64,000 nucleotides of DNA from Octopus vulgaris (lineage: Eukaryota). Below the pieces are notes generated by a model. That model saw nothing but the letters and a program-made list of their open reading frames with translations, made no database searches and had not been told where the DNA came from. Positions 3,539-64,000 of the stretch are shown here, in pieces. The translations under genes were made by a program, and so were the position numbers. The DNA lies in NCBI GenBank assembly GCA_951406725.2, contig OX597816.1, positions 111,166,001 through 111,230,000 on the forward strand, read 5' to 3'. Position 1 is the stretch's first letter. The number at the start of each line of letters is the position of its first letter.

Positions 3539-4058
3539 ATGAGGGTAGAAATTACTATTATTAATTAATATCAATTTAAACCAGTATCCTAGCATACTTT
3601 AAAAAGTCCGAAGTCTATGAATTATATTACACACACAAGAAGAATAGCCGACAAGGTGGATTCCTAATATGCTAGAAGAAAACGCCAAATCGCCTTACTA
3701 CGAAGAATATGTTCTCAAAAAGTTTCAGCAAACGCCAGAATGTAAGCAAGCAAGACAAATGAAAAGATACAAAATATGGCAATAAACTCCAAACCTCGAG
3801 ATTTCGCTATTAACGGTCACTAATGTGATCATCCGTGGCTCATCAGGAAACATAATTCACAGAACTAGACACAAAACGTCCTCTCGATAGAGAACATGTA
3901 TAAAATTCTGCCAATTATGGATCAGGGTCTCTCTTACAAATGTTTTGATTTTGACGAGCTGAAACTTGAAAGAACACTGCGGTTTATAGATTTCCGCAGC
4001 GAATTCACCGGTTAGAGAACACGGCTATTTAAAAGTCAAATAATGAGGGTAGAAATTA
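3539..4058 (-). mobile_element. Non-coding HHR-containing element (retrozyme or Penelope pLTR-derived) bounded by a 16-bp direct repeat
   Basis: atgagggtagaaatta at 3539-3554 and 4043-4058 (spacing 504); internal minus-strand CTGATGA...GAAA hammerhead core. Confidence 0.55.
3785..3855 (-). ncRNA. Putative type I hammerhead ribozyme
   Basis: Minus strand CTGATGA (3846-3840); stem II gc-..acgg-..tcac-atta-gtga-ccgt-..gc; GAAA (3805-3802); near-palindromic stem III AATCTCGAGGTT; stem I weak. Confidence 0.55.
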
Positions 4059-4092: not shown

Positions 4093-4478
4093 AGGTGCAG
4101 GAGTGGGTTTGCGTTAAGTAGCTTGCTTACTAACCCCATGGTTCCGGGTTCAGTCCCACTGCGTGGTACCTTGGGCAAATGTCTTCTGCTATAGCTTCGG
4201 GCCCACCAAAGACTTGTGAGTGGATTTGATGGACAGAAATTGAAAGAAGCCCGTCCTATATATGTGTGTGTCTGTCTGTCTGTGAATGTTTCTGCGTCTG
4301 TGTTTGTCCCAACATCGCTTGACAACCGATGGTGGTGTGTTTAGGTCCCCGTAACTTAGCGGTTCGGCAAAAGAGAACTGATAGTTTAAGTACTAGGCAT
4401 TCTGGGGTCGATTTACATGTCTAAAGGCGGTGCTCCAACACGGCTGCAGTCAAATGACTGAAACAAGTAAAAAAAAAA
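4093..4478 (+). mobile_element. tRNA-derived SINE, near full length
   Basis: tRNA-like head with B-box-like ggttcagtccc, body accttgggcaaatgtcttctgctatag, internal (TG)-rich tract, 3' end gactgaaacaagtaaaaa; partial copies at 37530-37620(-), 38328-38480(+), 19700-19860(-), 41640-41800(-). Confidence 0.8.
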
Positions 4479-4499
4479 GATACTCCCAATGAATTTGAT

Positions 4500-6233
4500 G
4501 TGCCTATGGGTAGTTCGGATAGTGCGCAGATAGCCGATTTGGTCGGAATATATATTCTCTACGAATTGTCCGACCAATTCCCGGAGATCGCGGGCGGCCT
4601 GTATCGTGACGATTGTCTGTTTTACCTGCAAAACACCACGAACAGAATAGTGCAGAAAACTAAGAGCAGGTTAGCTAGGTTTTTTAATAGAATGGGCATG
4701 AGTATAGTTTTTGATAATGAACTCACCAAGGCCAATTTCCTAGACGTTACACTTAACCTTAATAGCGACTCATACTGCCCTTACCATAAGCCTTCCACTA
4801 ATTTGAAGTATGTCAGTGTCTTCTCAAATCATGCCAAAACCGTAACAGACAATTTGGTTAAAAACATCTCTCTAAGATTGTCTGGCTTGTCCGCCAGTGC
4901 CGATATTTTTATGCAGAAAGCGGAATTTTATAACGCCGCACTATCCAAGGCCGGTTATAGGCAGAAGGTAATTTATATTGATCCGGCCCTTCCGATGCCA
5001 TCATTCGGTCATCAGGATAGGGCCGTATATAATAACATTAACATTTTAAGTAAGGACGGGAGCGCGGTGGATGCCGGGGTAGTCGCTCCCGCATTTAATT
5101 TAGCGAACAAGGATAATTATCGGTCCGGGAGGTCTTACACTAACCCAAGACCCGTCATTCATCCGAGAATCACCCACCCGAATGCGAGAGCTGGCGTCCC
5201 GATCCATCACACTGATAGGAATAAGCATATATGGTTTGTAATCCCCTTTGGTAAGCAGATTAGAACTAACCTCCCCCTCATGTTTAGACAAGCCATTGCC
5301 AATAACTTCCCCAGAAATTCCAAATATTACTCCACGGTTAACTCGCATAAAGTTAGGATAGCTTTCTCCAACACTAAAAACCTCGCCCAGATAATCGCCT
5401 CCCATAATAATAGGCTACTTACTAAGACCCTATCACCTTTTTCCGGAGGCACAGCCTCTTCCGCTCCCGGTTTAATGCTCAGTAGGAATAATTATAGTAG
5501 TAATAATGATATGAGAGCCAGTACAGTGACACATAATCTCAGCTCCAGCCAGGGAGTACCCACTAGGGGTATAGTTATAAATAGGGGTGTTGTGGTTGAC
5601 GGTAACAATGGGAGTAGGGTAGAGAGCCCCAATAGCATCCCCAGCATCATTTCCCGCAATAGCAGCACCACGGGCAGTAGCAATGACAGCACTTTGATAG
5701 ATAGTGGAGAATCAGGGGTTATTCCTATAGTTAATAGTGACGTAGTGGAAAATAGAGTAGTAAGCGGCTGCAGGTCTCGGAACGAATATAGTGACAGGAA
5801 CGCAGTTCTAATTTCAGAAACTAATCCTAGCAGAATTAGATTCACGTCGGCGAACTCCAAGATCAAAAACGCCGTCTACCAATGCAAGGTTTACACGGAC
5901 TCAGATGTCTTCACTTATGTAGGGGCCTCATCCTCAAGATTGTCTTTGCGTGTCTCCAACCATTACGCAACTTTTCGGGACATGAACAAGCGCCAGACCA
6001 CGGGACTCAGTAAGCTAATATGGCGACTGAAGGATACGAACCTAAGCTACAGGCTGGAATGGTCAATTTTGTCGGTGGCCCTCCCATTTGATAGGGGCAG
6101 AAGGCAGTGCAACCTTTGTGTCTCCGAACTCTTCCATATTTTGTTTGCCAGAGGCCGGATGGTAAACGGGCTTTTACAGTCGGCTTTTCGATGCCCCCAT
6201 TGGCGGCGTTACACTTATCTGGCTTTTAAATAG
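4500..6233 (+). pseudogene. 5'-truncated duplicate of the PLE ORF (C-terminal 577 aa)
   Basis: Translation matches the last 577 aa of ORF 7170-9857; lacks the N-terminal RT motifs (DKT, FDI). Confidence 0.9.
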
Positions 6234-6818
6234 CGTTTATAAATAATACCGGCACCCATAGCCCTTGGTAACAAATTCTGAAATAGCCTTTAAGATATCT
6301 ACGATTAACCACTGCAAGGGGAATTACTCCTGTAAGACAAACGGGGCTTGGTTTTTTCACAGCGGGGGGTTTCCTTGACAAGGCAGGCTTAGATGAGAAC
6401 ACACACACACATAAAACATGATATATATTTTTTTTCTGCCACCCAACGGTCATCACGGCAGTAGCCACTGACAGCCGAACGATCAAACGCACACACGTAC
6501 ACAAAAAATGTTTTCTACCCCTACGCCAACACACACGTATATAGAACAGTATACACACACACACGTCTCTAAGTAGATTTTTTCTCGCCCCTTATAAAAC
6601 ATCCAATATTCCTTAAATAGTCAGAACTTTATTCTCGGTCACAAAGAACATCTACGCCCCCTCACCCACATGATTGACCGATGCCTGACCCGTTGAATTC
6701 TTCAGCCACCGGTTCTCAACATACACTGATAAACAGTTTCGCCATGGGCTCTTAGGAGCATAGTTCGATTTGTTTTTGCTCCGCCTCTGTTCTGTTTTTG
6801 TTTTTCCAACGGGTTTCC

Positions 6819-6912
6819 TATTTTCTTCCTGAAGAGAAAGACACAATATGGTCCCATTATTCCATCGGATTTTGGTAATTTGTGCCTTTCGAAACACGTG
6901 TAGAATGAAATA
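6819..6912 (+). ncRNA. Type I hammerhead ribozyme (PLE unit 1)
   Basis: Stem I tattttcttc / gaatgaaata; core CTGAAGA 6829-6835; stem II gaaagacacaa / ttgtgcctttc (10 of 11 pairs); GAAA 6891-6894; palindromic stem III ACACGTGT; GUA triplet, predicted cleavage after 6902. Confidence 0.8.
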
Positions 6913-7169
6913 AAACGATTTCTGTTCAATCTGCGTTCAGCTCCATTTCTTCAATTCACCAATAATGTTCTAATTTCAATTATCCGCACCAACGCACGGT
7001 TGCAACACCATATGGTTGTACCTCCAACCGTGCTGTTTTACTGCTGTGATTTTTGCTACTAAGGTATCGGTTAAACTTTTGATTAATCTACTACAAGATT
7101 ATTCATCTTTCTATTTCACATAATACATACCGCTTCGTCAAGAAACTGCTACTTTAACCGATACCAATA

Positions 7170-9857
7170 ATGGAGTTGTTCGAGATTGATGCGTCCCTTA
7201 AGGATATTCCTATACCACCAAAGGATGCCTTCCTTAAGGAGTTGGTTTGTAAAACCAACGCATTCATAAACCGGATAAGATGGCTCATTTTCTTCCACGA
7301 GAACGAAGATCTAAAATCGAACCGGACAACAGCATCGTCCGAATACGGCCGGCTTTTTAAAACATTGGATACGCCGCCACCTAACCCAAGACTGAAGAAG
7401 TTTGAGGACGACTTGTGGGACATAGTTAGAAAGATTAAGTTCAGGAAGTCACCCAGGAGAAATGCCCACCTCAGATACCTAGATAAAATTACCAAGGACA
7501 TTAATAGAACGGACGGAGTCCTGGTCCAGTCCGACAAGACCAGGAACACATACAAGATGCCCATTAAGCAGTACCTAGATTTACTCGGTAAAGAGATCAA
7601 GAAAAATTATAGAAAAACCAATTGGAGTACCCTGAGGAAGGTAAACTTGGAAATTAAGGAAATAATATTTAAACACCGAATTCAAATGAGAACTCAGCCG
7701 CTTAGCCCTAAGCAACCCGGATTTATAGTGAAGGACCATAAACCGAACTTCCACACCAACCCAGCGCTAAGACTCATATGCCCTGCTAGATCTGATATCG
7801 GGATAATCAGTAAGTACATTTTAGATAAATATATCCCTAGTTTAGTAAACAAGCTGAAGCTCAGCCTCTGGGCCAACTCCTCGCAGGTAGTGAAGTGGTT
7901 CTCTTCCATCCCCAATAAGAACCGTACTAGGTTCATTCAGTTTGATATCGCCAGCTTCTACCCCTCGATTAACCCTAGTGTGCTAAATAAGGCCCTCTGG
8001 CATGCTCACAACAAGGCTGGCCTCACCAGAGAAGAGATAGATATCATTTTAGTTGCCAGGAAATCGTTTATTAAGTTTGATAATAAGTTGTGGATCCGTA
8101 AAGATACTCCCAATGAATTTGATGTGCCTATGGGTAGTTCGGATAGTGCGCAGATAGCCGATTTGGTCGGAATATATATTCTCTACGAATTGTCCGACCA
8201 ATTCCCGGAGATCGCGGGCGGCCTGTATCGTGACGATTGTCTGTTTTACCTGCAAAACACCACGAACAGAATAGTGCAGAAAACTAAGAGCAGGTTAGCT
8301 AGGTTTTTTAATAGAATGGGCATGAGTATAGTTTTTGATAATGAACTCACCAAGGCCAATTTCCTAGACGTTACACTTAACCTTAATAGCGACTCATACT
8401 GCCCTTACCATAAGCCTTCCACTAATTTGAAGTATGTCAGTGTCTTCTCAAATCATGCCAAAACCGTAACAGACAATTTGGTTAAAAACATCTCTCTAAG
8501 ATTGTCTGGCTTGTCCGCCAGTGCCGATATTTTTATGCAGAAAGCGGAATTTTATAACGCCGCACTATCCAAGGCCGGTTATAGGCAGAAGGTAATTTAT
8601 ATTGATCCGGCCCTTCCGATGCCATCATTCGGTCATCAGGATAGGGCCGTATATAATAACATTAACATTTTAAGTAAGGACGGGAGCGCGGTGGATGCCG
8701 GGGTAGTCGCTCCCGCATTTAATTTAGCGAACAAGGATAATTATCGGTCCGGGAGGTCTTACACTAACCCAAGACCCGTCATTCATCCGAGAATCACCCA
8801 CCCGAATGCGAGAGCTGGCGTCCCGATCCATCACACTGATAGGAATAAGCATATATGGTTTGTAATCCCCTTTGGTAAGCAGATTAGAACTAACCTCCCC
8901 CTCATGTTTAGACAAGCCATTGCCAATAACTTCCCCAGAAATTCCAAATATTACTCCACGGTTAACTCGCATAAAGTTAGGATAGCTTTCTCCAACACTA
9001 AAAACCTCGCCCAGATAATCGCCTCCCATAATAATAGGCTACTTACTAAGACCCTATCACCTTTTTCCGGAGGCACAGCCTCTTCCGCTCCCGGTTTAAT
9101 GCTCAGTAGGAATAATTATAGTAGTAATAATGATATGAGAGCCAGTACAGTGACACATAATCTCAGCTCCAGCCAGGGAGTACCCACTAGGGGTATAGTT
9201 ATAAATAGGGGTGTTGTGGTTGACGGTAACAATGGGAGTAGGGTAGAGAGCCCCAATAGCATCCCCAGCATCATTTCCCGCAATAGCAGCACCACGGGCA
9301 GTAGCAATGACAGCACTTTGATAGATAGTGGAGAATCAGGGGTTATTCCTATAGTTAATAGTGACGTAGTGGAAAATAGAGTAGTAAGCGGCTGCAGGTC
9401 TCGGAACGAATATAGTGACAGGAACGCAGTTCTAATTTCAGAAACTAATCCTAGCAGAATTAGATTCACGTCGGCGAACTCCAAGATCAAAAACGCCGTC
9501 TACCAATGCAAGGTTTACACGGACTCAGATGTCTTCACTTATGTAGGGGCCTCATCCTCAAGATTGTCTTTGCGTGTCTCCAACCATTACGCAACTTTTC
9601 GGGACATGAACAAGCGCCAGACCACGGGACTCAGTAAGCTAATATGGCGACTGAAGGATACGAACCTAAGCTACAGGCTGGAATGGTCAATTTTGTCGGT
9701 GGCCCTCCCATTTGATAGGGGCAGAAGGCAGTGCAACCTTTGTGTCTCCGAACTCTTCCATATTTTGTTTGCCAGAGGCCGGATGGTAAACGGGCTTTTA
9801 CAGTCGGCTTTTCGATGCCCCCATTGGCGGCGTTACACTTATCTGGCTTTTAAATAG
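7170..9857 (+). CDS. Penelope-like reverse transcriptase + C-terminal GIY-YIG endonuclease, 895 aa, intact
   Basis: Motifs SLKDIPIP, SDKT, KDHKPNF, FIQFDIASFYPSI, MGSSD, GLYRDD, FLDVTLNL; endonuclease AVYQC...YVG...R..NH...CNLCVSE...N...CPH. This signature set matches the Naiad branch of PLEs. Confidence 0.93.
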   Translation: MELFEIDASLKDIPIPPKDAFLKELVCKTNAFINRIRWLIFFHENEDLKSNRTTASSEYGRLFKTLDTPPPNPRLKKFEDDLWDIVRKIKFRKSPRRNAHLRYLDKITKDINRTDGVLVQSDKTRNTYKMPIKQYLDLLGKEIKKNYRKTNWSTLRKVNLEIKEIIFKHRIQMRTQPLSPKQPGFIVKDHKPNFHTNPALRLICPARSDIGIISKYILDKYIPSLVNKLKLSLWANSSQVVKWFSSIPNKNRTRFIQFDIASFYPSINPSVLNKALWHAHNKAGLTREEIDIILVARKSFIKFDNKLWIRKDTPNEFDVPMGSSDSAQIADLVGIYILYELSDQFPEIAGGLYRDDCLFYLQNTTNRIVQKTKSRLARFFNRMGMSIVFDNELTKANFLDVTLNLNSDSYCPYHKPSTNLKYVSVFSNHAKTVTDNLVKNISLRLSGLSASADIFMQKAEFYNAALSKAGYRQKVIYIDPALPMPSFGHQDRAVYNNINILSKDGSAVDAGVVAPAFNLANKDNYRSGRSYTNPRPVIHPRITHPNARAGVPIHHTDRNKHIWFVIPFGKQIRTNLPLMFRQAIANNFPRNSKYYSTVNSHKVRIAFSNTKNLAQIIASHNNRLLTKTLSPFSGGTASSAPGLMLSRNNYSSNNDMRASTVTHNLSSSQGVPTRGIVINRGVVVDGNNGSRVESPNSIPSIISRNSSTTGSSNDSTLIDSGESGVIPIVNSDVVENRVVSGCRSRNEYSDRNAVLISETNPSRIRFTSANSKIKNAVYQCKVYTDSDVFTYVGASSSRLSLRVSNHYATFRDMNKRQTTGLSKLIWRLKDTNLSYRLEWSILSVALPFDRGRRQCNLCVSELFHILFARGRMVNGLLQSAFRCPHWRRYTYLAFK

Positions 9858-10443
9858 CGTTTATAAATAATACCGGCACCCATAGCCCTTGGTAACAAAT
9901 TCTGAAATAGCCTTTAAGATATCTACGATTAACCACTGCAAGGGGAATTACTCCTGTAAGACAAACGGGGCTTGGTTTTTTCACAGCGGGGGGTTTCCTT
10001 GACAAGGCAGGCTTAGATGAGAACACACACACACATAAAACATGATATATATTTTTTTTTCTGCCACCCAACGGTCATCACGGCAGTAGCCACTGACAGC
10101 CGAACGATCAAACGCACACACGTACACAAAAAATGTTTTCTACCCCTACGCCAACACACACGTATATAGAACAGTATACACACACACACGTCTCTAAGTA
10201 GATTTTTTCTCGCCCCTTATAAAACATCCAATATTCCTTAAATAGTCAGAACTTTATTCTCGGTCACAAAGAACATCTACGCCCCCTCACCCACATGATT
10301 GACCGATGCCTGACCCGTTGAATTCTTCAGCCACCGGTTCTCAACATACACTGATAAACAGTTTCGCCATGGGCTCTTAGGAGCATAGTTCGATTTGTTT
10401 TTGCTCCGCCTCTGTTCTGTTTTTGTTTTTCCAACGGGTTTCC

Positions 10444-10537
10444 TATTTTCTTCCTGAAGAGAAAGACACAATATGGTCCCATTATTCCATCGGATTTTGG
10501 TAATTTGTGCCTTTCGAAACACGTGTAGAATGAAATA
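10444..10537 (+). ncRNA. Type I hammerhead ribozyme (PLE unit 2)
   Basis: Same sequence as 6819-6912; CTGAAGA 10454-10460; predicted cleavage after 10527. Confidence 0.8.
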
Positions 10538-10746
10538 AAACGATTTCTGTTCAATCTGCGTTCAGCTCCATTTCTTCAATTCACCAATAATGTTCTAATT
10601 TCAATTATCCGCACCAACGCACGGTTGCAACACCATATGGTTGTACCTCCAACCGTGCTGTTTTACTGCTGTGATTTTTGCTACTAAGGTATCGGTTAAA
10701 CTTTTGATTAATCTACTACAAGATTATTCATCTTTCTATTTCACAT

Positions 10747-10791
<45 letters not shown>

Positions 10792-24198: not shown

Positions 24199-25837
24199 CT
24201 ATACGCTGCAACTGACAAACAGCTGGAAACACTATTAAAGACAGTTCATGGATTTACCAAAGAAATAGATATGAAATTTGGATTAGAAAAATGCGCCAAA
24301 GTAACCATGAAAAGAGGAAAACTAGTTAAGAGTAACAACATTACACTAGATAAAACCAATGAAATAAAAGAATTAGACCAAAGCCAAACTTACAAATACT
24401 TAGGAATCCATGAACTAGATAAGACACAACACACACAAATGAAAGAGAAAATAAAAAAAGAATATTATAGACGAGTTAGATCAATACTAAAAACAGAGCT
24501 CAATGCTAAAAACAAGATAATAGGTATCAACACTTTAGCTGTCCCAGTTATAAGTTACAGCTACAATATCCTTAACTGGACACGAAATGAACTGTCCAAA
24601 ATAGATAGGAAAACAAGAAAAATACTGACAGGATCTAGGATGCATCACCCAAAATCTGACATAGAAAGACTATATATACAACGTATAGAAGGTGGTAGAG
24701 GCCTTATACAGCTGGAAAACTACTATAAAATAACCACCATAGGACTGCAAAAATACCTACTCCAGAAGGAAGGAAAACTGATCCAGATAGCAGCAAAACA
24801 CGAGCAAATCAAAAAACTGTCCTCAGTATTTAAGGAAGCTGACAAATACAAACAAGAAATCATACCACCTAATAAACACAAAGAAGAAGAAGAAGATGAT
24901 GAAGAAACAACAAAAGCTATAAAACAAATGAAATCCAAACTAAAAATAGAACAGCAACGAGCCATGATAAAACGATGGCAAGAAAAACCCCTTCATGGTA
25001 AATACTGCACTAAACTAAACGCAAAAGAAATAGACAAAGAAAAATCCCAGCAATGGTTGAGAAGCTCAGGACTCAAAGCAGAAACAGAGGGATTTTTAAT
25101 TGCAGCACAAGACCAAAGCCTCCCCACCAGAAATTACCAAAAACATGTAATGAAAAGAAATATTACAAGTAACTGCAGAATATGTGTAGATGGACAAGAA
25201 ACAATAAATCATATTATCTCTAGCTGCCCAGTCCTGGCTAAGAAGGAATATATTCACAGACATGACAGAGTTGGAATCTACATACATTGGAAGCTATGCC
25301 AACATTATGGAATAACAACAGAAAAAAGATGGTATAGGCACACACCAGAAAAGGTCACAGAAAACGAGAAAGCAACCATACTCTGGGATATGCCGATACA
25401 TACAGATAGAGAAATTAAGGCCAACAGACCAGATATAGTTGTCAGAGATCATGAAGAAAAAAAATGCTTTCTAATTGATGTATCAATACCGGCAGATGAC
25501 AACGTGTCTCTAAAAGAAATGGAGAAACTCTCAAAATACAAAGACCTGGAAATAGAGGTAACTAGAATGTGGAACCTGAAAACAGAAACAATTCCTATCA
25601 TAGTAGGTGCATTAGGCATGATAAAAAAATATTCAGACAAATACATAACAAAAACACCAGGACTTACAAACACATATAACATACAGAAAATTGCACCACT
25701 AGGCACTGCACACATCCTACGTAGAACACTTTCCATACAATAACCATCAGAGCATCACAACAAATCACAGCACATACCCAAGGCACACAGAGCTGCGCTC
25801 GGTAGTGAAGTGAAAGCACGCTATAAAAATAAAACTA

Positions 25838-25840
<3 letters not shown>
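24199..25840 (+). mobile_element. R4/Dong-clade non-LTR retrotransposon, 5'-truncated copy 1
   Basis: Begins just after the RT YMDD motif (compare copy 3); short 3' UTR ends aataaaactactg followed by (AAT)n. Confidence 0.9.
24271..25743 (+). CDS. C-terminal RT/thumb + CCHC zinc knuckle + restriction-like endonuclease (truncated LINE ORF, 490 aa)
   Basis: KFGLEKC, YKYLG, GGRGL, CRIC..ETINHIISSC, RHD, RPDIVV...IDVSIP...KYKDL. Confidence 0.85.
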   Translation: MKFGLEKCAKVTMKRGKLVKSNNITLDKTNEIKELDQSQTYKYLGIHELDKTQHTQMKEKIKKEYYRRVRSILKTELNAKNKIIGINTLAVPVISYSYNILNWTRNELSKIDRKTRKILTGSRMHHPKSDIERLYIQRIEGGRGLIQLENYYKITTIGLQKYLLQKEGKLIQIAAKHEQIKKLSSVFKEADKYKQEIIPPNKHKEEEEDDEETTKAIKQMKSKLKIEQQRAMIKRWQEKPLHGKYCTKLNAKEIDKEKSQQWLRSSGLKAETEGFLIAAQDQSLPTRNYQKHVMKRNITSNCRICVDGQETINHIISSCPVLAKKEYIHRHDRVGIYIHWKLCQHYGITTEKRWYRHTPEKVTENEKATILWDMPIHTDREIKANRPDIVVRDHEEKKCFLIDVSIPADDNVSLKEMEKLSKYKDLEIEVTRMWNLKTETIPIIVGALGMIKKYSDKYITKTPGLTNTYNIQKIAPLGTAHILRRTLSIQ

Positions 25841-25896
<56 letters not shown>

Positions 25897-25907
25897 TGAT
25901 GATGATG

Positions 25908-25986
<79 letters not shown>

Positions 25987-26396
25987 TAATAATAATAATA
26001 CCAACAACAACAACATCCTGAGCCAGTCGTTGAAGGTAAAGATGTCACACAAGATTGTGCTGACAAGCATTGCCTGCATCCTTAACAAAACCCTATCAAT
26101 TAAAATTTTTGTGTTGTATTACATGAAGATATTTCGCTATTGTCCCTGCCATTCCCCCTCTCTAAGCTTTCAGTAATACTGTAACATTTCTTATCGTTCA
26201 CTCGCCCTAGGACACTGGGTGTGTCTCGAAAAGGATTGTAACAAACATGCAGGTTGAAAAGTAAATACTGCTGCTGCTGCTACTGCTGCTACTACTACTA
26301 CTACTAATATTGCCACTACTACTACTACAACTACTACTACTACTACTACTACAACTACTAACAATAAAAATAATATTAATAATAATAATAATAATG

Positions 26397-32875: not shown

Positions 32876-32877
<2 letters not shown>

Positions 32878-33605
32878 GACCAAAGCCTCCCCACCAGAAA
32901 TTACCAAAAACATGTAATGAAAAGAAATATAAAAAGTAACTACAGAATATGTGGAGATGGACAAGAAACAATAAATCATATTATCTCTAGCTGCCCAGTC
33001 CTGGCTAAGAAGGAATATATTCACAGACATGACAGAGTTGAAAGCAACATACATTGGAAGCTATGCCAACATTATGGAATAACAACAGAAAAAAGATGGT
33101 ATAGGCACACACCGGAAAAGGTCACAGAAAACGAGAAAGCAACCATACTCTGGGATATGCCGATACACACAGATAGAGAAATTAAGGCCAACAGACCAGA
33201 TATAGTTGTCAGAGATCATGAAGAAAAAATGCTTTCTAATTGATGTATCAATACCGGCAGATGACAACGTGTCTCTAAAAGAAATGGAGAAACTCTCAAA
33301 ATACAAATACCTGGAAATAGAGGTAACCAGAATGTGGAATCTAAAAACAGAAACAATTCCTATCATAGTAGGTGCATTAGGCATGATAAAAAAATATTCA
33401 GACAAATACGTAACAAAAACACCAGGACTTACAAACACATATAACATACAGAAAATTGCACTACTAGGCAATGCACACATCCTACGCAGAACACTTTCCA
33501 TACAATAACCATCAGAGCATCACAACAAATCATAGCACATACCCAAGGCACACAGAGCTGCGCTCGGTAGTGAAGTGAAAACACGTTATAAAAATAAAAC
33601 TACTG
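32876..33605 (+). mobile_element. R4/Dong-clade LINE, 5'-truncated copy 2 (frameshifted), embedded in (AAT)n
   Basis: Near-identical to 25110-25840; (AAT)n on both sides, followed by (AAG)n. Confidence 0.92.
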
Positions 33606-34250: not shown

Positions 34251-34453
34251 CACGTATGCACATTGCTGTCTCTTCTCGGTCTCTCGCTTACACATCAATA
34301 ATGATTATAATACGAAAGAAACAGCAACACATGGCCATGAGCGTTGTTCTGTCACAAAGTAAATACTGTAAAAAGAAATCGAAACGCCAGCTTAATTTAA
34401 TTCATCCTTAGTCGAAAGAAACCTGTTGTTATGTCCTGTTATTTGTATTGTTT

Positions 34454-35145
34454 TCATATACATTCACTGCTTTCTTCCAAGGAATCTAATGCTCTTAGCT
34501 TAGTTTTTTCTTGGGGCTGGCCAGATTGGAGCAATCTCGTGTATAAGCAGCCGAAATTGCAAAGATAATCTGGAACACAACTAAGGATAGAAACTTCGAA
34601 AGACCCGTCCTTGTTTTCATCTGTCTGGATGTATTGCGTTCCTGTCCTATTTTTGTAATATATATATATGCTAGCCTTTTCGTGTTCAGCAGCCGTCGCG
34701 GCAAGACACATTTTTTCTCTCTCTTGCCCTAAGGTATTTTTCTAACGCCAGCTCAAAATTCATTCGTCCTGCCGAAAAGACGCTTGTCTGTGACGTCCTG
34801 TTCTTGTTATAAGTATTATCATTATTGTTTTTACGTATTTTTGTATTCTTATTCGTGTTATCATTATTGTTTTTACGTATTTTTGTATTTTTATTCGTGT
34901 AACATCGTCTGGTTTTCCGTTCTTGTTTTGTATACATTCGAGGCTTTCTTCCAAGGAACCTATTGCGCTCGGCTTAGATTTTCCTTTGGGGGTGGCCAGA
35001 TCGGAGCAATCTGAAGATTAATCAGCCGAAATTGTGAGGATGATCCGGTTCTAGACTGAAGATTGAAGGCATCGAATGTCCCGTCCGTGTTTTTTGTATC
35101 GTCTTCTAAATGTTTTACGTTCTTGTCCCAGTTTGTATTTTTTAC
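34454..35145. repeat. Two diverged copies of a ~200-bp dispersed repeat (34454-34655 and 34930-35130) with a linker containing a ~39-bp tandem duplication
   Basis: Shared blocks atacattc..gctttcttccaaggaa, tggccagat-ggagcaatct, cagccgaaattg, cccgtcc. Confidence 0.75.
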
Positions 35146-35154
35146 ATTTACACA

Positions 35155-35299
<145 letters not shown>

Positions 35300-43680: not shown

Positions 43681-43719
43681 CAGAATAGCTCACTTAAACT
43701 TTTAAGAGGAGAGGGTCTT

Positions 43720-45135
43720 CTTTGAGTGTTTTCAGGCAAACCCATCCAGGAATGGTATATCGAGAAAAATACAAGCGGTCAAACAAAAGTATTCTATCAA
43801 ATTTTCTCCATAGATTATTGGGATTTGTGTTAGAAAGTAACACAATGAAGTTTAGACAAAGATATTACCACCAGACGAAGAGTTGCGCCATGGGTACCCC
43901 CATGGTAGTTAATTTCGCTATTGTCTTCATAACGAAATTCGAGACGCAGTTACTGAAAACATTCAAATCCCTTCATGGTCATGAACCAATACTCTGGTTA
44001 CGGTTCATTGACGACATATTTTCTGTCTGGGGAGGATCACAGGATAGTTTAATGGACTTCTTGCATTTCTGTACCTGTTATGCTAGAAATTATGGCTTTA
44101 AGTCCAACATAAAATTTACGACTAATTTTTCAATAACTACCGTTCAATGTTTCGACACAAAATCAATTTTTCTGGAGGCAGAATAGTGACAGAGTTATTT
44201 TGCAAGCCCACGTCATCCCACATTTATCTGCACCGCCGCTCTGAACATCCACATCATCTTTTTCGGTCAAATCCGAAATCCCAATTTTTGAGGACAAAAT
44301 GGATTTGTACTGACATAGGGGATTACTGGAAACATGCAAATCCTTTTGTATATCATTATGTCAAACGCGGTTACAGTGAATCAAGATTAAAGGAAATAGC
44401 AAATGAAATAGCTAAGATTAGCAAAGCTGTCAAACCTACACGCATAATTTTAGCACACACACAATACAATAAATGACAGAATTCCTTTAGTGATAAGCTG
44501 ACATTTCAAAAGTGTTGCATGAAAGTTACCAGCCTGTGGCGAAAACAATATCCTCGCTTCAACAGAAATTCCCTCAGCCGCCTATTGTAGCCTTTAGATG
44601 GAATAAGAATATAAGAGAATTGATGACCTCTATAGCTGACTCCAAGAAATCGAACATTGGAGTATCTAAATGCTGTACCTTAAAGAACAGCCGCAAGAGA
44701 GCTAAGCCCTGTTCATTCTGCAACAACATGAGTGAAGTGAATTCCATCAGAAATCAAAACAGAAATGTCATGATTTATACAGAAGGTGGAACATGTAAAG
44801 ATTCCCATTTGGTGTACGCTGCATAATGCACGAAACATAACTTAATTTATATTGGTTGTACAACAGAACAATTAAGCAAAATGCTTAATGGGTACTGATT
44901 CGATGTCAGATACAATAACAGTAGTTCGACAGAACTTGCTGAGCATTTCGTTTCAATCGGCTGCAGTTTTGAAGAAGACTTGAAAGTGCATGTTCTCAGA
45001 AAATATTCTGAATCTGCTCCACTTCTTAGAATGTATGAGGAGAAATATATTTGCAGGTTATTCACATCACGCCCTGGAGAAATGAATAAGATTACAGGAG
45101 AATATCATCAAATTTATACAAAACTGTTTGATTAA
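43720..45135 (+). pseudogene. Decayed Penelope-like element (Neptune-like): RT, Cys linker, GIY-YIG
   Basis: YHQTKSCAMGTP, WLRFIDDIF, LFCKPT...YLH..SEHP, PPIVAFR, CSFC...TC..SHLVYAA*CTKHNLIYIG; stops and frameshifts. Confidence 0.88.
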
Positions 45136-54300: not shown

Positions 54301-54670
54301 ACGTTTGTTTTTTCTGAAAACAACATCACTAGTTTTGATTCAATTTTCTATCATTATTATTTAACTAAATAACTAGTAGATCAATTTCCTGATCTAACAG
54401 TTAGTTTTGAAGTGTAATTTCTTTATTGTTTGCTACCCTATAGATGTTATTTCTTCATCTGTTCTTCACATGTGTCGTTAATATATGAGTTCACAGTGAC
54501 ATTGTTTCATGAAATATTGACGAAAGAACATTGTATATGATCGAATTTTGAGAAAGGTAGTGCAAAATACATTCCGATTGCTTTACTGGTGTGATATAAG
54601 TTGTAACAATCATAAACATGCCAAGAGTTGGGATGCCAACAGTACAGGAATCTTGACAGTAATATGTTAA

Positions 54671-54883
54671 TACAGTTCTCTATTGAAGAAATAAGGAATT
54701 ATGTATATTATTTACATTATTTACATTTGACGGATATTTGTCCTCATCTTGTTTGTTGTTAACACAACGTTTCGGCTGATATACCCTCCAGCCTTCATCA
54801 GGCGTCTTGGAGAAATTTTGAACATGGCTTCTCATTCCTAAGGTATTTTTCGATGTTGTTGTTGTTGTTGTTATTATTATTAC

Positions 54884-54944
<61 letters not shown>
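54671..54944 (-). mobile_element. HHR-tailed SINE-like element, left arm of the fold-back dimer
   Basis: 54708-54860 is the reverse complement of ~57720-57877 with 2 mismatches in the unique part. Confidence 0.85.
54761..54806 (-). ncRNA. Minimal type I hammerhead ribozyme
   Basis: Reverse complement of 57779-57824. Confidence 0.7.
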
Positions 54945-54947
<3 letters not shown>

Positions 54948-57410
54948 TAGTTTTATTTTTATAGCGTGCTTTCACTTCACTACCGAGCGCAGCTCTGTGT
55001 GCCTTGGGTATGTGCTGTGATTTGTTGTGATGCTCTCATGGTTATTGTATGGAAAGTGTTCTGCGAAGGATGTGTGCAGTGCCTAGTAGTGCAATTTTCT
55101 GTATGTTATATGTGTTTGTAAGTCCTGGTGTTTTTGTTACGTATTTGTCTGAATATTTTTTTATCATGCCTAATGCACCTACTATGATAGGAATTGTTTC
55201 TGTTTTCAGGTTCCACATTCTAGTTATCTCTATTTCCAGGTCTTTGTATTTTGAGAGTTTCTCCATTTCTTTTAGAGACACGTTGTCATCTGCCGGTATT
55301 GATACATCAATTAGAAAGCATTTTTTTCTTCATGATCTCTGACAACTATATCTGGTCTGTTGGCCTTAATTTCTCTATCTGTGTGTATCGGCATATCCCA
55401 GAGTATGGTTGCTTTCTCGTTTTCTGTGACCTTTTCTGGTGTGTGCCTATACCATCTTTTTTCTGTTGTTATTCCATAATGTTGGCATAGCTTCCAATGT
55501 ATGTAGGTTCCAACTCTGTCATGTCTGTGAATATATTCCTTCTTAGCCAGGACTGGGCAGCTAGGGATAATATGATTTATTGTTTCTTGTCCATCTACAC
55601 ATATTCTGCAGTTACTTGTAATATTTCTTTTCATTACATGTTTTTGGTAATTTCTGGTGGGGAGGCTTTGGTCTTGTGCTGCAATTAAAAATCCCTCTGT
55701 TTCTGCTTTGAGTCCTGAGCTTCTCAACCATTGCTGGGATTTTTCTTTGTCTATTTCTTTTGCGTTTAGTTTAGTGCAGTATTTACCATGAAGGGCTTTT
55801 CTTGCCATCGTTTTATCATGGCTCGTTGCTGTTCTATTTTTAGTTTGGATTTCATTTGTTTTATAGCTTTTGTTGTTTCTTCATCATCTTCTTCTTCTTC
55901 TTTGTGTTTATTAGGTGGTATGATTTCTTGTTTGTATTTGTCAGCTTCCTTAAATACTGAGAACAGTTTTTTGTTTTGCTCGTGTTTTTCTGCTATCTGG
56001 ATCAGTTTTCCTTCCTTCTGAAGTAGGTATTTTTGCAGTCCTATGGTGGTTATTTTATAGTAGTTTTCCAGCTGTATAAGGGCTCTACCACCTTCTATAC
56101 GTTGTATATATAGTCTTTCTATGTCAGATTTTGGGTGATGCATCCTAGATCCTGTCAGTATTTTTCTTGTTTTCCTATCTATTTTGGACAGTTCATTTCG
56201 TGTCCAGTTAAGGATATTGTAGCTGTAACTTATAACTGGGACAGCTAAAGTGTTGATACCTATTATCTTGTTTTTAGCATTGAGCTCTGTTTTTAGTATT
56301 GATCTAACTCGTCTATAATATTCTTTTTTATTTTCTCTTTCATTTGTGTGTGTTGTGTCTTATCTAGTTCATGGATTCCTAAGTATTTGTAAGTTTGGCT
56401 TTGGTCTAATTCTTTTATTTCATTGGTTTTATCTAGTGTGATGTTGTTACTCTTAACTAGTTTTCCTCTTTTCATGGTTACTTTGACGCATTTTTCTAAT
56501 CCAAATTTCATATCTATTTCTTTGGTAAATCCATGAACTGTCTTTAATAGTGTTTTCAGCTGTTTGTCATTTGCAGCGTATAGTTTTAGGTCATCCATAT
56601 ATAAAAGGTGGCTGATCGTTTTGCCGTAACATTTATACCCGCATCCAGTTCTATTTAGCATATCAGATAGAGGTGACAGTGCCAAGCAGAAAAGGAGTGG
56701 AGAGAGCGTGTCTCCCTGGAATATTCCTCTTCTAATGGGGATGGCTTTGGTTTTCATGAGTCCCTCTTTTGTTTGGAGGTGTAGGGCTGTTTGCCATTTA
56801 TTCATAGAGTGCTCTATGAATTTTATGATTGTTGGTGCTACTTTGTTAATGGCTAGTGTTTCGAGGATCCATGTGTGGGGGATGCTATCAAACGCCTTTT
56901 TGTAGTCAATCCAGGCCATACTGAGGCCTTTCTTCTTTCTGTGGCTGTCTTCAGTTACGACTTTATTAATCATTAGTTGATCTTTACAGCCATATGAGCC
57001 CTTGCGGCATCCTTTCTGCTCTTCTGGGAACAGTTTGTTTTCGTCCAGGTGCTTGTTCAGCCTTTGCGATATCACTGCAGTAAATGCCTTGAACATAGTA
57101 GGGAGGCAGGTTATTGGTCTGTAGTTTTCTGGTTTTGTTGTTTCATTTGATTTGGGAATTAAGATGGTTTTTTCCACTTCGTGAGCCATTCAGGCATTGT
57201 CTCTGGCTCTGCTAGTATGCTGTTAAAGTTTTCAGCCAGCTTTTTGTACATTCCTGTTAGATATTTCAACCAGAAGTTGGGGATCTTGTCATGCCCAGGT
57301 GCCTTCCAGTTGCATAGTTTTTGCAGTGCCTGGGTGACCTCTTCAGTTGTTATGGGGGTCCAAAGTTGTTCAGATGCCGAGTTTGTTATTTTCATACTCC
57401 TTTTTTTTGG
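54945..57410 (-). mobile_element. R4/Dong-clade LINE copy 3 (RT + CCHC + RLE, several frameshifts)
   Basis: KAPGHDKI, YRPITCL, WIDYKKAFDS, GIFQGDTLSPLLF, HLLYMDDLK, CRIC, RPDIVV; 3' end aataaaactactg then (AAT)n. Confidence 0.93.
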
Positions 57411-57411
57411 C

Positions 57412-57563
57412 TGTTCGTTCGCCGACCATATTTCTCTCCAGTGTTCGTTCGCCGACCATATTTCTCTCCAGTGTTCGTTCGCCGACCATATTTCTCTCCA
57501 GTGTTCGTTCGCCGACCATAATTCTCTCCAGTTATCTTTCGCCGACCATATTTCTCTCCAGTT
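57412..57563. repeat. 30-bp tandem repeat x5 at the LINE 5' junction
   Basis: Unit gttcgttcgccgaccatatttctctccagt; the minus strand reads WREIWSANEH. Confidence 0.92.
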
Positions 57564-57582
57564 ATTATTATTATCGAACTCG

Positions 57583-57626
57583 GAGTTCGATTCCTGCCAG
57601 TGACCTGAATAATAATAATAATAATG

Positions 57627-57714
<88 letters not shown>

Positions 57715-57877
57715 CAACAGCAACAACAACATCGAAAAATACCTTAGGAATGAGAAACCATGTTCAAAATTTCTCCAAGACGCCTGATGAAGGCTGGAGG
57801 GTATATCAGCCGAAACGTTGTGTTAACAACAAACAAGATGAGGACAAATATCTGTCAAATGTAAATAATGTAAATAA
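57583..57877 (+). mobile_element. HHR-tailed SINE-like element, right arm (B-box remnant + (AAT)n + unique tail)
   Basis: gagttcgattcc (Pol III B-box-like), gtgacctg(AAT)n, then catcgaaaaataccttagg...HHR...aaatgtaaataa. Confidence 0.85.
57779..57824 (+). ncRNA. Minimal type I hammerhead ribozyme
   Basis: Stem I gacgc/gtgtt; CTGATGA 57784-57790; stem II GGCTG-10nt-CAGCC; GAAA 57812-57815; palindromic AACGTT stem III; GUU site, predicted cut after 57819. Confidence 0.7.
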
Positions 57878-58960
57878 GTAATATTTTATTTCACACAAAA
57901 GAGATAATTAATTACTGAGAGTTCACATTTCCACACATAGACAGAACTATGATTATATATTTTTGTGAATTAAACTAACGAGGTGCATAATTCCTGAAGT
58001 ATAAAATATTTTATATTGCCATTGTGGATTATATTGAGACACGGTCTGGTTTAAACGTCAAAAGAACAAACACATTGCACTGATTCAATGCTGAGATGCT
58101 AATGACCCTCAGTGATGAAATAACTCGCTCAATTAGAAGGCCTACTATTACACTGCATAGATTCATGAATGCCTATCTACTATATTGCCTCTGACATATA
58201 TTTAAATAACCTAGATAGTTATATTTTCCCTCTAGAGCAAGCACAAGGTTGTTTCAGTACTGTTCTAGGAATATTATTCCTCGTTCATATATAATTTGAT
58301 CTCTCTACAATTTTCATATATAAAGAGATTACTGAACTCACTAAATTGTTACTGTCACAAAACTAGAGAAGTTAGAACAGCCTCCAGATAATAAATCTCT
58401 TTCTCTCAGACTCAATAATGAAAACAAGAATGGGTTTATTATAATTTTACCGGTGCAATATCCCTTATTGTTTGCTTGAAAGAGTTAACACATCTCATTT
58501 GTAATATCTTCATATTTTGGCATGAACAAAATGTCGGAAATCAGTGCCCCAGGCTGAAACCAGTAAACGAAAATTAACGCAGAAACGTGGTCACATACAC
58601 AAGCGCATACATACGCATACATATATATGTGTAAGCGTGGGAATTTGTGAGAGTTTATGTGCATAAAATATACTCATGCAAATATTTCTATGAGCTAACA
58701 AGATCTTCACACAAACTCAATTACAACCAAAGCAGAGTTTGGAATTTATTTATTACCAAAAGGCCTCAATTTTTCTGTGGCTTTAGAGTACAAAATTGGC
58801 AATGATTATATTAAAAGAACTCATTTTGTTGGTGAAGAATGAAACTGTTTTAGTAGGTACCAAAACCATTTCATAGCTTTATTTTTCACCTCACGGCCTG
58901 CAACATATTGCTCTTCTGCTCCAATCGCTTTTCATAAACTTAGGAGTATTTTTCTGGGAA

Positions 58961-63228: not shown

Positions 63229-63247
63229 TAATAATAATAATAATAAA

Positions 63248-64000
63248 CTGAAGGATCCTACCAAAATTTACAACAACAACCATGGGAAGACATCACAATA
63301 GCAGACCTAAGAAAGGCACTCACGAAGGCCCATAATTGGAAATCCCCCGGTAAAGATAGGGTGCCGAATTTCTGGCTCGCATCGCTCCCATGCGCACACG
63401 GTAAGCTAGTTCAGCTGCTCAATCGAATTATGAGAGACCCAAAGAAAACACCTGAATGGTTAGCAAGTGGCATTACTTACCTACTCCCAAAGAATAACGA
63501 AACCAACCTTCCAAATAACTATCGGCCTATAACCTGTCTATCCACCACGTATAAAATCCTAACATCTATCCTGGCGGAGAAAACATATGCATTCATGGAG
63601 AAGAACGATATTTTCCCCATTGAACAAAAAGGGTGCCGCCGAGGCTCTTACGGATGCAAAGATCAACTGCTAATCAATCGTATGATCCTTGAGAACTGTC
63701 ACAACAAGCGCAGAAATCTCAGCACCGCATGGATTGACTATAAAAAGGCCTTCGACAGTATACCGCATCCATGGATCTTGAGATCGCTGGACATCTTCAA
63801 GATTTCCCCTGTGATTTCAAACTTCCTGAACCACAATATGTCGTTGTGGAATACGAATCTCCAATTATACCACTCTAATGGAGTACTTGCCTCAGAAAAT
63901 ATAAACATCAACTGTGGAATTTTTCAAGGTGACTCACTTTCACCTTTAATATTCTGCATAGCCCTAATACCCCTGACAAGTGAATTAAACAGAACAGGGT
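63248..64000 (+). mobile_element. Second R4/Dong-clade LINE subfamily, 5'-truncated, open reading frame running off the window end
   Basis: Manual translation shows no stop: HNWKSPGKDRVPNFW, NYRPITCL, EQKGCRRGSYGCKDQL, WIDYKKAFDSIPH, GIFQGDSLSPL; begins right after (AAT)n 63140-63246; absent from the ORF track because no stop codon is reached. Confidence 0.9.

Follow-up and report, generated by a model that had tools for sequence, protein, structure and literature searches.

The 64,000-nt stretch of the Octopus vulgaris genome analyzed here (assembly GCA_951406725.2, contig OX597816.1, forward-strand positions 111,166,001–111,230,000; “the window” below, with all coordinates counted from its first letter) contains a pair of inverted repeats, each bearing a minimal hammerhead ribozyme motif, and a long interspersed nuclear element (LINE) lies within the left one (Table 1). 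An earlier note, made from the letters of this DNA, had described the pair as a fold-back dimer of a hammerhead-bearing short interspersed nuclear element (SINE) mobilized by the machinery of Penelope-like elements (PLEs). The two mismatches that it reported between the arms are real, both being transitions (57757/54828 and 57853/54732), but the unique part of each arm measures 149 nt rather than ~155 nt. With the adjoining tracts, the inverted match extends over 237 nt at 98% identity. Read in the sense direction, both arms follow an (AAT)n tract that ends in an AAC run; the left tract comprises ~88 nt plus an 11-nt run beyond the LINE, and the right tract 121 nt. At the center lies a perfect 19-nt palindrome, with 9-bp arms and a 1-nt spacer, just as first described. 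Non-simple palindromes of this kind occur three times in the 64-kb window, and are present anywhere in 9 of 300 simulated 3.2-kb sequences. It had also been expected that removal of the LINE and of the 30-nt repeats beside it would leave a clean head-to-head palindrome. This is not the case: the left arm keeps 9 nt of the head stub but lacks the other 16 nt, it carries 38 nt of additional sequence at its 3' end, and the tracts are unequal. Two AT dinucleotides can be aligned at the edges of the 16-nt gap, as would be expected of a microhomology jump.

Table 1. Features of the inverted hammerhead locus, in window coordinates
Feature	Position	Strand	Remarks
Target-site duplication (TSD), left copy	54658..54669	+	12 bp, 1 mismatch
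3' extension (“tail”), 38 nt, left arm only	54670..54707	-	absent from right arm
Left arm, unique hammerhead-bearing unit	54708..54856	-	149 nt
Left minimal type I hammerhead motif	54761..54806	-	core at 54801; ends mirrored from right arm
Left (AAT)n-(AAC)n tract, target of Dong	54857..54944	-	~88 nt
Dong/R4-clade LINE, 5'-truncated, frameshifted	54945..57561	-	reverse transcriptase, CCHC finger; restriction-enzyme-like (REL-type) endonuclease motif by eye
Five 30-nt copies of Dong open reading frame (ORF) sequence, at the truncated 5' end of the LINE	57412..57561	-	
TAA run, 11 nt, between LINE 5' end and center	57562..57572	-	
Fold-back center, 9-bp inverted arms around 57582	57573..57591	no strand	
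Head stub, 25 nt, with B-box-like motif (57583–57594), no A box	57583..57607	+	57592–57607 without mirror copy
Right (AAT)n-(AAC)n tract	57608..57728	+	121 nt
Right arm, unique unit, no tail	57729..57877	+	149 nt
Right minimal type I hammerhead motif	57779..57824	+	predicted cut after 57819
TSD, right copy	57877..57888	+	

There is evidence from several sides that the two arms arrived together. The follow-up analysis added a feature absent from the earlier note, namely a 12-bp TSD around both arms, a direct repeat that matches at 11 of 12 positions and lies just outside both arm ends. Its score was reached by none of 1500 random flank pairs; two half-real controls of 600 pairs each likewise gave none, with all pairs searched over the same registers and lengths as the real flanks. 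Published PLE insertions have inverted, head-to-head pseudo-long terminal repeats (pLTRs) and TSDs of 8–10 bp around the inverted units; one arm carries a 31-bp tail, and junction palindromes of 18 and 38 bp have been interpreted as products of self-priming (PMC3846280). This anatomy has been generalized, with a 30–40 bp tail at one end (PMC8557442), and the tail corresponds to the stretch between two reverse-transcription start sites of an anole PLE in vitro (PMC11167929). The octopus unit has in common with these endonuclease-bearing (EN+) PLE units the head-to-head arms, the junction palindrome, a 30–40 nt tail on one arm, a short TSD around the whole and a minimal hammerhead near the 3' end. 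It differs from them in having no ORF and in its 5' part, where an (AAT)n tract plus a B-box-like stub take the place of PLE coding sequence or any known PLE untranslated region. No ORF with the reverse transcriptase and GIY-YIG domains of an autonomous PLE lies between the arms, where the only coding remnants are those of Dong. The earlier note had listed LINE-type TSDs among the findings that would refute it; because inverted PLE units have TSDs of 8–10 bp, a TSD is no argument against mobilization by a PLE. The TSD, the one-sided tail and the head-to-head relatives described below match the published signature, so one fold-back insertion is well supported. The proposal of a Penelope-type inverted dimer that Dong entered later is supported by the single TSD, the tail on one arm, the junction palindrome and the relatives. 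In our judgment, the locus is very probably a real inverted insertion of the PLE type, probably dead, in which a Dong is nested.

Two other origins for the paired arms deserve consideration. Independent, adjacent insertions of two members of a young, high-copy family, followed by a local snap-back that produced the 9-bp palindrome, would fit with the 16 nt missing from the left arm, and young copies may be 98%–99% alike anyway. However, a single TSD encloses both arms, no unique DNA lies between them once the LINE is set aside, and both tracts finish in the same AAC run; we regard this origin as very unlikely. The inverted pair could also be a fold-back artefact of long reads in the assembly. 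No contig covers 57577–57625 (57601–57625 was excluded as repeat), and the LINE has frameshifts, some of them near homopolymer runs. But the inverted match stops at the element ends, where the flanks differ, the LINE and the tail are each found in one arm only, and four sequencing runs from three studies contain 0.94–0.95 of the sampled words of the right arm and its flank. An artefact therefore appears extremely improbable.

How might a single insertion have produced this structure? A PLE endonuclease would make a staggered cut, ~12 bp apart, in AT-rich DNA. Reverse transcription from the outer internal start site would give the arm with the tail, and from the inner site the arm without it. 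Both copies would stop at the B-box region and would be joined head to head by fold-back or self-priming, giving the 19-nt palindrome. The left arm may have lost its 16 nt, between the two AT dinucleotides, either at the fold-back step or when Dong inserted.

The hammerhead motif also resembles those of PLEs. In both arms, it consists of CUGAUGA followed by an additional A, a stem II of 5 bp, GAAA and a predicted GUU cleavage site. Stem I is GACGC/GUGUU (57779–57783 pairs with 57820–57824 in the right arm), and a 4-nt palindrome, which would pair in a dimer, stands in place of helix III. A structure-aware scan found exactly these two hammerhead motifs in the window, against none in 60 Markov controls of 64 kb; an Rfam search returned no hammerhead match for the arm motifs. 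Three features described for the minimal hammerheads of PLEs (PMC4209133) recur in the octopus arms: A9 is followed by an additional base, stem II begins with a G-C pair, and helix III is reduced to a palindromic stub. In Schistosoma, paired motifs on opposite strands are described, and the activity of minimal hammerheads is low, with none as monomer (PMC4209133). When the octopus hammerhead is folded alone, predicted pair probabilities exceed 0.9 in both stems; within the 149-nt unit, a predicted rival hairpin wins and the stem II pair probability drops to 0.02. Two hammerheads on opposite strands provide no in-cis dimer, which minimal hammerheads need. The missing A box, the opposite-strand arrangement and the predicted sequestration of the core by the rival hairpin mean that the copies at this locus are likely dead. 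Cleavage by the hammerhead is dispensable for the anole PLE in vitro (PMC11167929). Elsewhere in the window, positions 3790–3860 (minus strand) hold a CUGAUGA...CGAAA motif with a long stem II that fails the helix test, and 34448–35134 holds two old repeats, 74% identical, with decayed hammerhead-like words. The repeat at 34380–35200 has a 15-nt match, on the opposite strand, to the start of the unit, which is not significant.

The hammerhead unit is a multi-copy sequence, as judged from translated relatives. There are 58 translated matches to it, of which 21 were picked by eye as the closer family and 28 constitute a sister family; the library is clustered at 50% with a single representative of each cluster, and the closer relatives sampled from it are older copies. 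Two relatives, P0001 and P0023, are proteins named Octopus bimaculoides. P0023, a dystrobrevin beta isoform of that species, starts with a translated piece of the unit, a possible case of exonisation or an annotation artefact. In translation, the two arms are 94% identical, against 74% for the best aligned relative in this one-per-cluster library. In translation, the 38-nt tail of the left arm resembles the 3' end in 5 of the 21 aligned relatives; by eye, several others diverge into unrelated sequence at the tail start, and some end too early to tell. Head-to-head pairs were sought in 55 matches (3 longer than 400 aa were left out), and an antisense copy precedes a sense copy in five, with P0018, P0002 and P0041 clear, P0003 and P0015 marginal, and two weaker scores set aside. 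P0018 scores 72, against a shuffle maximum of 46, and its turn falls within the unit, which shows that different loci folded back at different points.

The sister family (28 matches within P0002–P0058, known from translation only) is a hammerhead-type repeat with pLTR-like 129-nt tandems, an optional ~33-nt tail and head-to-head pairs. Of 43 unit ends, 35 have the tail and 8 lack it (1 of these uninformative), head-to-tail tandems occur in 12 of the 28 matches, and the upstream part is a constant stretch of ~90 nt that is not a tract. When three reading frames of the right arm were used in word-based protein searches, there was no scored match; an Atlas search produced no usable match, and pattern scans of prokaryote, metagenome and viral collections no match. 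A further scan gave three bacterial matches, which had no tRNA gene in them and were taken as chance.

What kind of RNA was inserted? SINEs are generally held to depend on LINE enzymes. At this locus, we lean slightly toward a single insertion in trans, by an endonuclease-bearing PLE, of a short non-coding hammerhead RNA with a tRNA-derived 5' part, Dong having come later. It is possible, at a little less than even confidence, that octopuses carry a dispersed, tRNA-headed SINE transcribed by RNA polymerase III (Pol III). Such a SINE would terminate in a Penelope pLTR, made up of the minimal hammerhead and an optional tail, and would be moved by the enzymes of PLEs instead of those of LINEs; its insertions would be marked by inverted dimers, tails on one side and TSDs of the PLE type. 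Two observations point this way. First, the B-box-like match at the head of the right arm is the only one in 64 kb for a pattern taken from general knowledge of B boxes, lies in sense orientation and starts 1 nt from the center. Second, neither sense unit contains a run of four T, the first being at 57884, after the right arm. The 3' end is the hammerhead unit plus the optional tail and not the LINE-derived tail or poly(A) end of a tRNA-derived SINE; blast gave no match to the Dong 3' end.

A number of points weigh against a tRNA-headed element. The earlier assignment to Pol III SINEs keeps its 25-nt stub with a B-box-like motif, but there is no A box at this truncated locus, and neither Rfam nor ARAGORN finds a tRNA. 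B-box matches are expected by chance at a mean of 0.9 per 64 kb; with about one per window, only the position of this one is telling, and that was judged after the fact. Because 54% of shuffled units also lack a four-T run, its absence is a weak sign. A tract-like stretch upstream is visible by eye in 2 of the 21 relatives (P0006 and P0016), and the reading frame cannot show a head. Residues common to both arms are not private to them, being found in 2 and in 4 of the 21 older relatives, and the 16-nt gap of the left arm requires an additional event. No autonomous partner was found, and the PLE at 4476–10752 of the window has no similar 3' region; neither it nor four other regions resemble the unit more closely than shuffled sequences do. 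None of the indexed main texts or searched supplements, including four files of PMC4758252, contains the short motifs of the unit that were looked for. In favor of a tRNA-headed element, octopus copies of the unit with a complete tRNA-like head presumably exist, a lead that raises its odds.

The same PLE-type insertion could have involved another RNA. It is rather unlikely, though a reading to be reckoned with, that the RNA came from a PLE with a Pol II promoter, either autonomous or internally deleted, and represented its 3' end (pLTR). The tract and stub would then be 3' untranslated region and the likeness to a B box incidental. Animal copies of minimal hammerheads are mostly truncated PLE ends (PMC4209133), the sister family has its pLTR-like tandems of 129 nt with a constant non-tract upstream part, and no tRNA match was found. 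Yet it is at the 5' end of the unit that the only B-box match of the window occurs, no ORF remnant adjoins the arms, and four motifs of the unit have no match in the searched supplement file of Craig 2021 (PMC8557442). A chimeric donor is also conceivable, in which an unrelated tRNA-SINE ending in (AAT)n lay upstream of a PLE end-piece and a read-through RNA from that one locus was inserted, with no hybrid family. PLEs carry neighboring DNA in trans (PMC3846280), and the AAT run is preceded by CTG both in the stub and at the Dong 3' end; the stub might thus be the end of a Dong-mobilized SINE. Two other relatives have a tract-like stretch directly upstream of the unit, however, octopus copies in which a complete tRNA-like head adjoins the unit presumably exist, and we consider a one-locus chimera improbable.

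How new would a tRNA-headed element moved by PLEs be? The insertion pattern itself is already known, and it is the SINE–PLE pairing that would plausibly be new. The earlier note had called the partnership possibly undescribed, which overstates the case for a SINE with a hammerhead but may hold for a SINE with the integration hallmarks of PLEs. Sm-alpha and Sj-alpha are SINE-like schistosome elements with hammerheads, and Sm-alpha is related to tRNA-Gln, apparently transcribed by Pol III and often tandem (PMC2770079, PMC6765202). They resemble the octopus unit in combining a tRNA-derived, Pol III-type part with a hammerhead in a short non-coding repeat, although in the octopus that part is a putative one, represented by the stub. 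They are described as tandem SINE-like repeats, and schistosomes also have canonical type I hammerheads (PMC4209133); the octopus hammerhead is of the minimal PLE type. The passages on the two elements in PMC2770079 and PMC6765202 contain no assignment to PLE enzymes, inverted units, tails or TSDs. Non-LTR retrozymes have been proposed to be non-autonomous PLE derivatives (10.64898/2026.07.22.740005, PMC7229834), and MRC1 is one such derivative (PMC8557442). Like the octopus unit, these elements are short and non-coding, with a type I hammerhead and a proposed use of PLE enzymes. Retrozymes are defined as head-to-tail tandems, whereas the octopus locus is inverted and tandems are seen only in the sister family. 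Searches of 10.64898/2026.07.22.740005 and PMC7229834 by term gave no tRNA-derived head or Pol III promoter. Promoters derived from tRNA are known in non-autonomous elements not driven by LINEs, for example Helenus (PMC10886601). A literature search that did not extend to most subscription journals, Repbase, Dfam or the Zenodo O. vulgaris transposable element library found no SINE with PLE integration hallmarks and no paper on the octopus hammerhead family, which Repbase, Dfam or the Zenodo library may contain.

What would follow if the pairing is real? First, a tRNA-headed element with PLE scars would be a Pol III parasite of Penelope-like elements. Second, it would suggest a mobilizer for the long-known Sm-alpha elements of schistosomes. 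Third, the in vitro PLE system would gain a natural template of small size, with which action in trans, the roles of tail and hammerhead, and the formation of inverted arms could be addressed. Fourth, PLEs make up 6.83% and SINEs 11.6% of the O. vulgaris genome (PMC13282606), and a family filed in the wrong class could therefore be large. Should the head turn out not to be shared across the family, the locus is an ordinary PLE scar with a nested LINE.

The nested LINE lies in the TAA tract of the left arm, as the earlier note had described, and ends in a TAA run; it has Pfam matches to RVT_1 (E 1e-33) and zf-RVT. It is 98.7% identical to a copy at 24199–25838 and 97.1% to one at 32876–33603, and all three Dong copies in the window that have a 3' end finish in TAA runs. 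The reverse transcriptase, the zf-RVT domain, the REL-type motif seen by eye and the TAA-run ends fit the Dong/R4 clade. Dong targets (TAA)n in molluscs (PMC7998251), and 1,129 recent insertions of it are reported in O. vulgaris (PMC13282606). The nested copy shares with these elements the reverse transcriptase and REL-type endonuclease, the (TAA)n target, 5' truncation and youth in octopus, and differs in the five tandem 30-nt ORF copies at its truncated end. These 30-mers are in frame with the LINE ORF. As a candidate part of the hammerhead element they were rejected, being duplicated Dong ORF sequence. Dong would have inserted after the fold-back, at its usual (TAA)n target in the left tract, and its reverse transcriptase would have re-copied the 30-nt ORF segment several times at the truncated end.

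Sequencing contigs on 57502–57625 number 40 from run X1, 28 from X5 and 0 from X14 or X20. One contig passes from a 30-mer into unrelated upstream sequence, read as native LINE. Over 57412–57572, contigs of two runs show several junctions from a 30-mer to a further 30-mer or to a TAA run, at depths well below that of a single unit. Dong truncation and stutter may have recurred at this ORF position in copies at two or more loci. Behind another Dong copy, the tract at 25838–26017 ends in an AAC run and then ATC, like the arms, and continues into unrelated sequence. A reverse transcriptase at 63247–63999 belongs to a second Dong-like family; over 158 nt, its identity to the nested LINE is 70%.

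The window also contains other PLE sequences. The element at 4476–10752 is a Penelope-like element in partial tandem (2655 bp, 99.9%) with an 899-aa ORF that has no Pfam match. The N-terminus of this ORF recalls the Hydra clade. Hammerhead scans of the element found no canonical hammerhead; hammerheads are reported in all PLE families of the Hydra clade (PMC8557442). At 43698–44183, a decayed fragment of a Penelope-like reverse transcriptase was recognized by eye (Pfam E 0.08).

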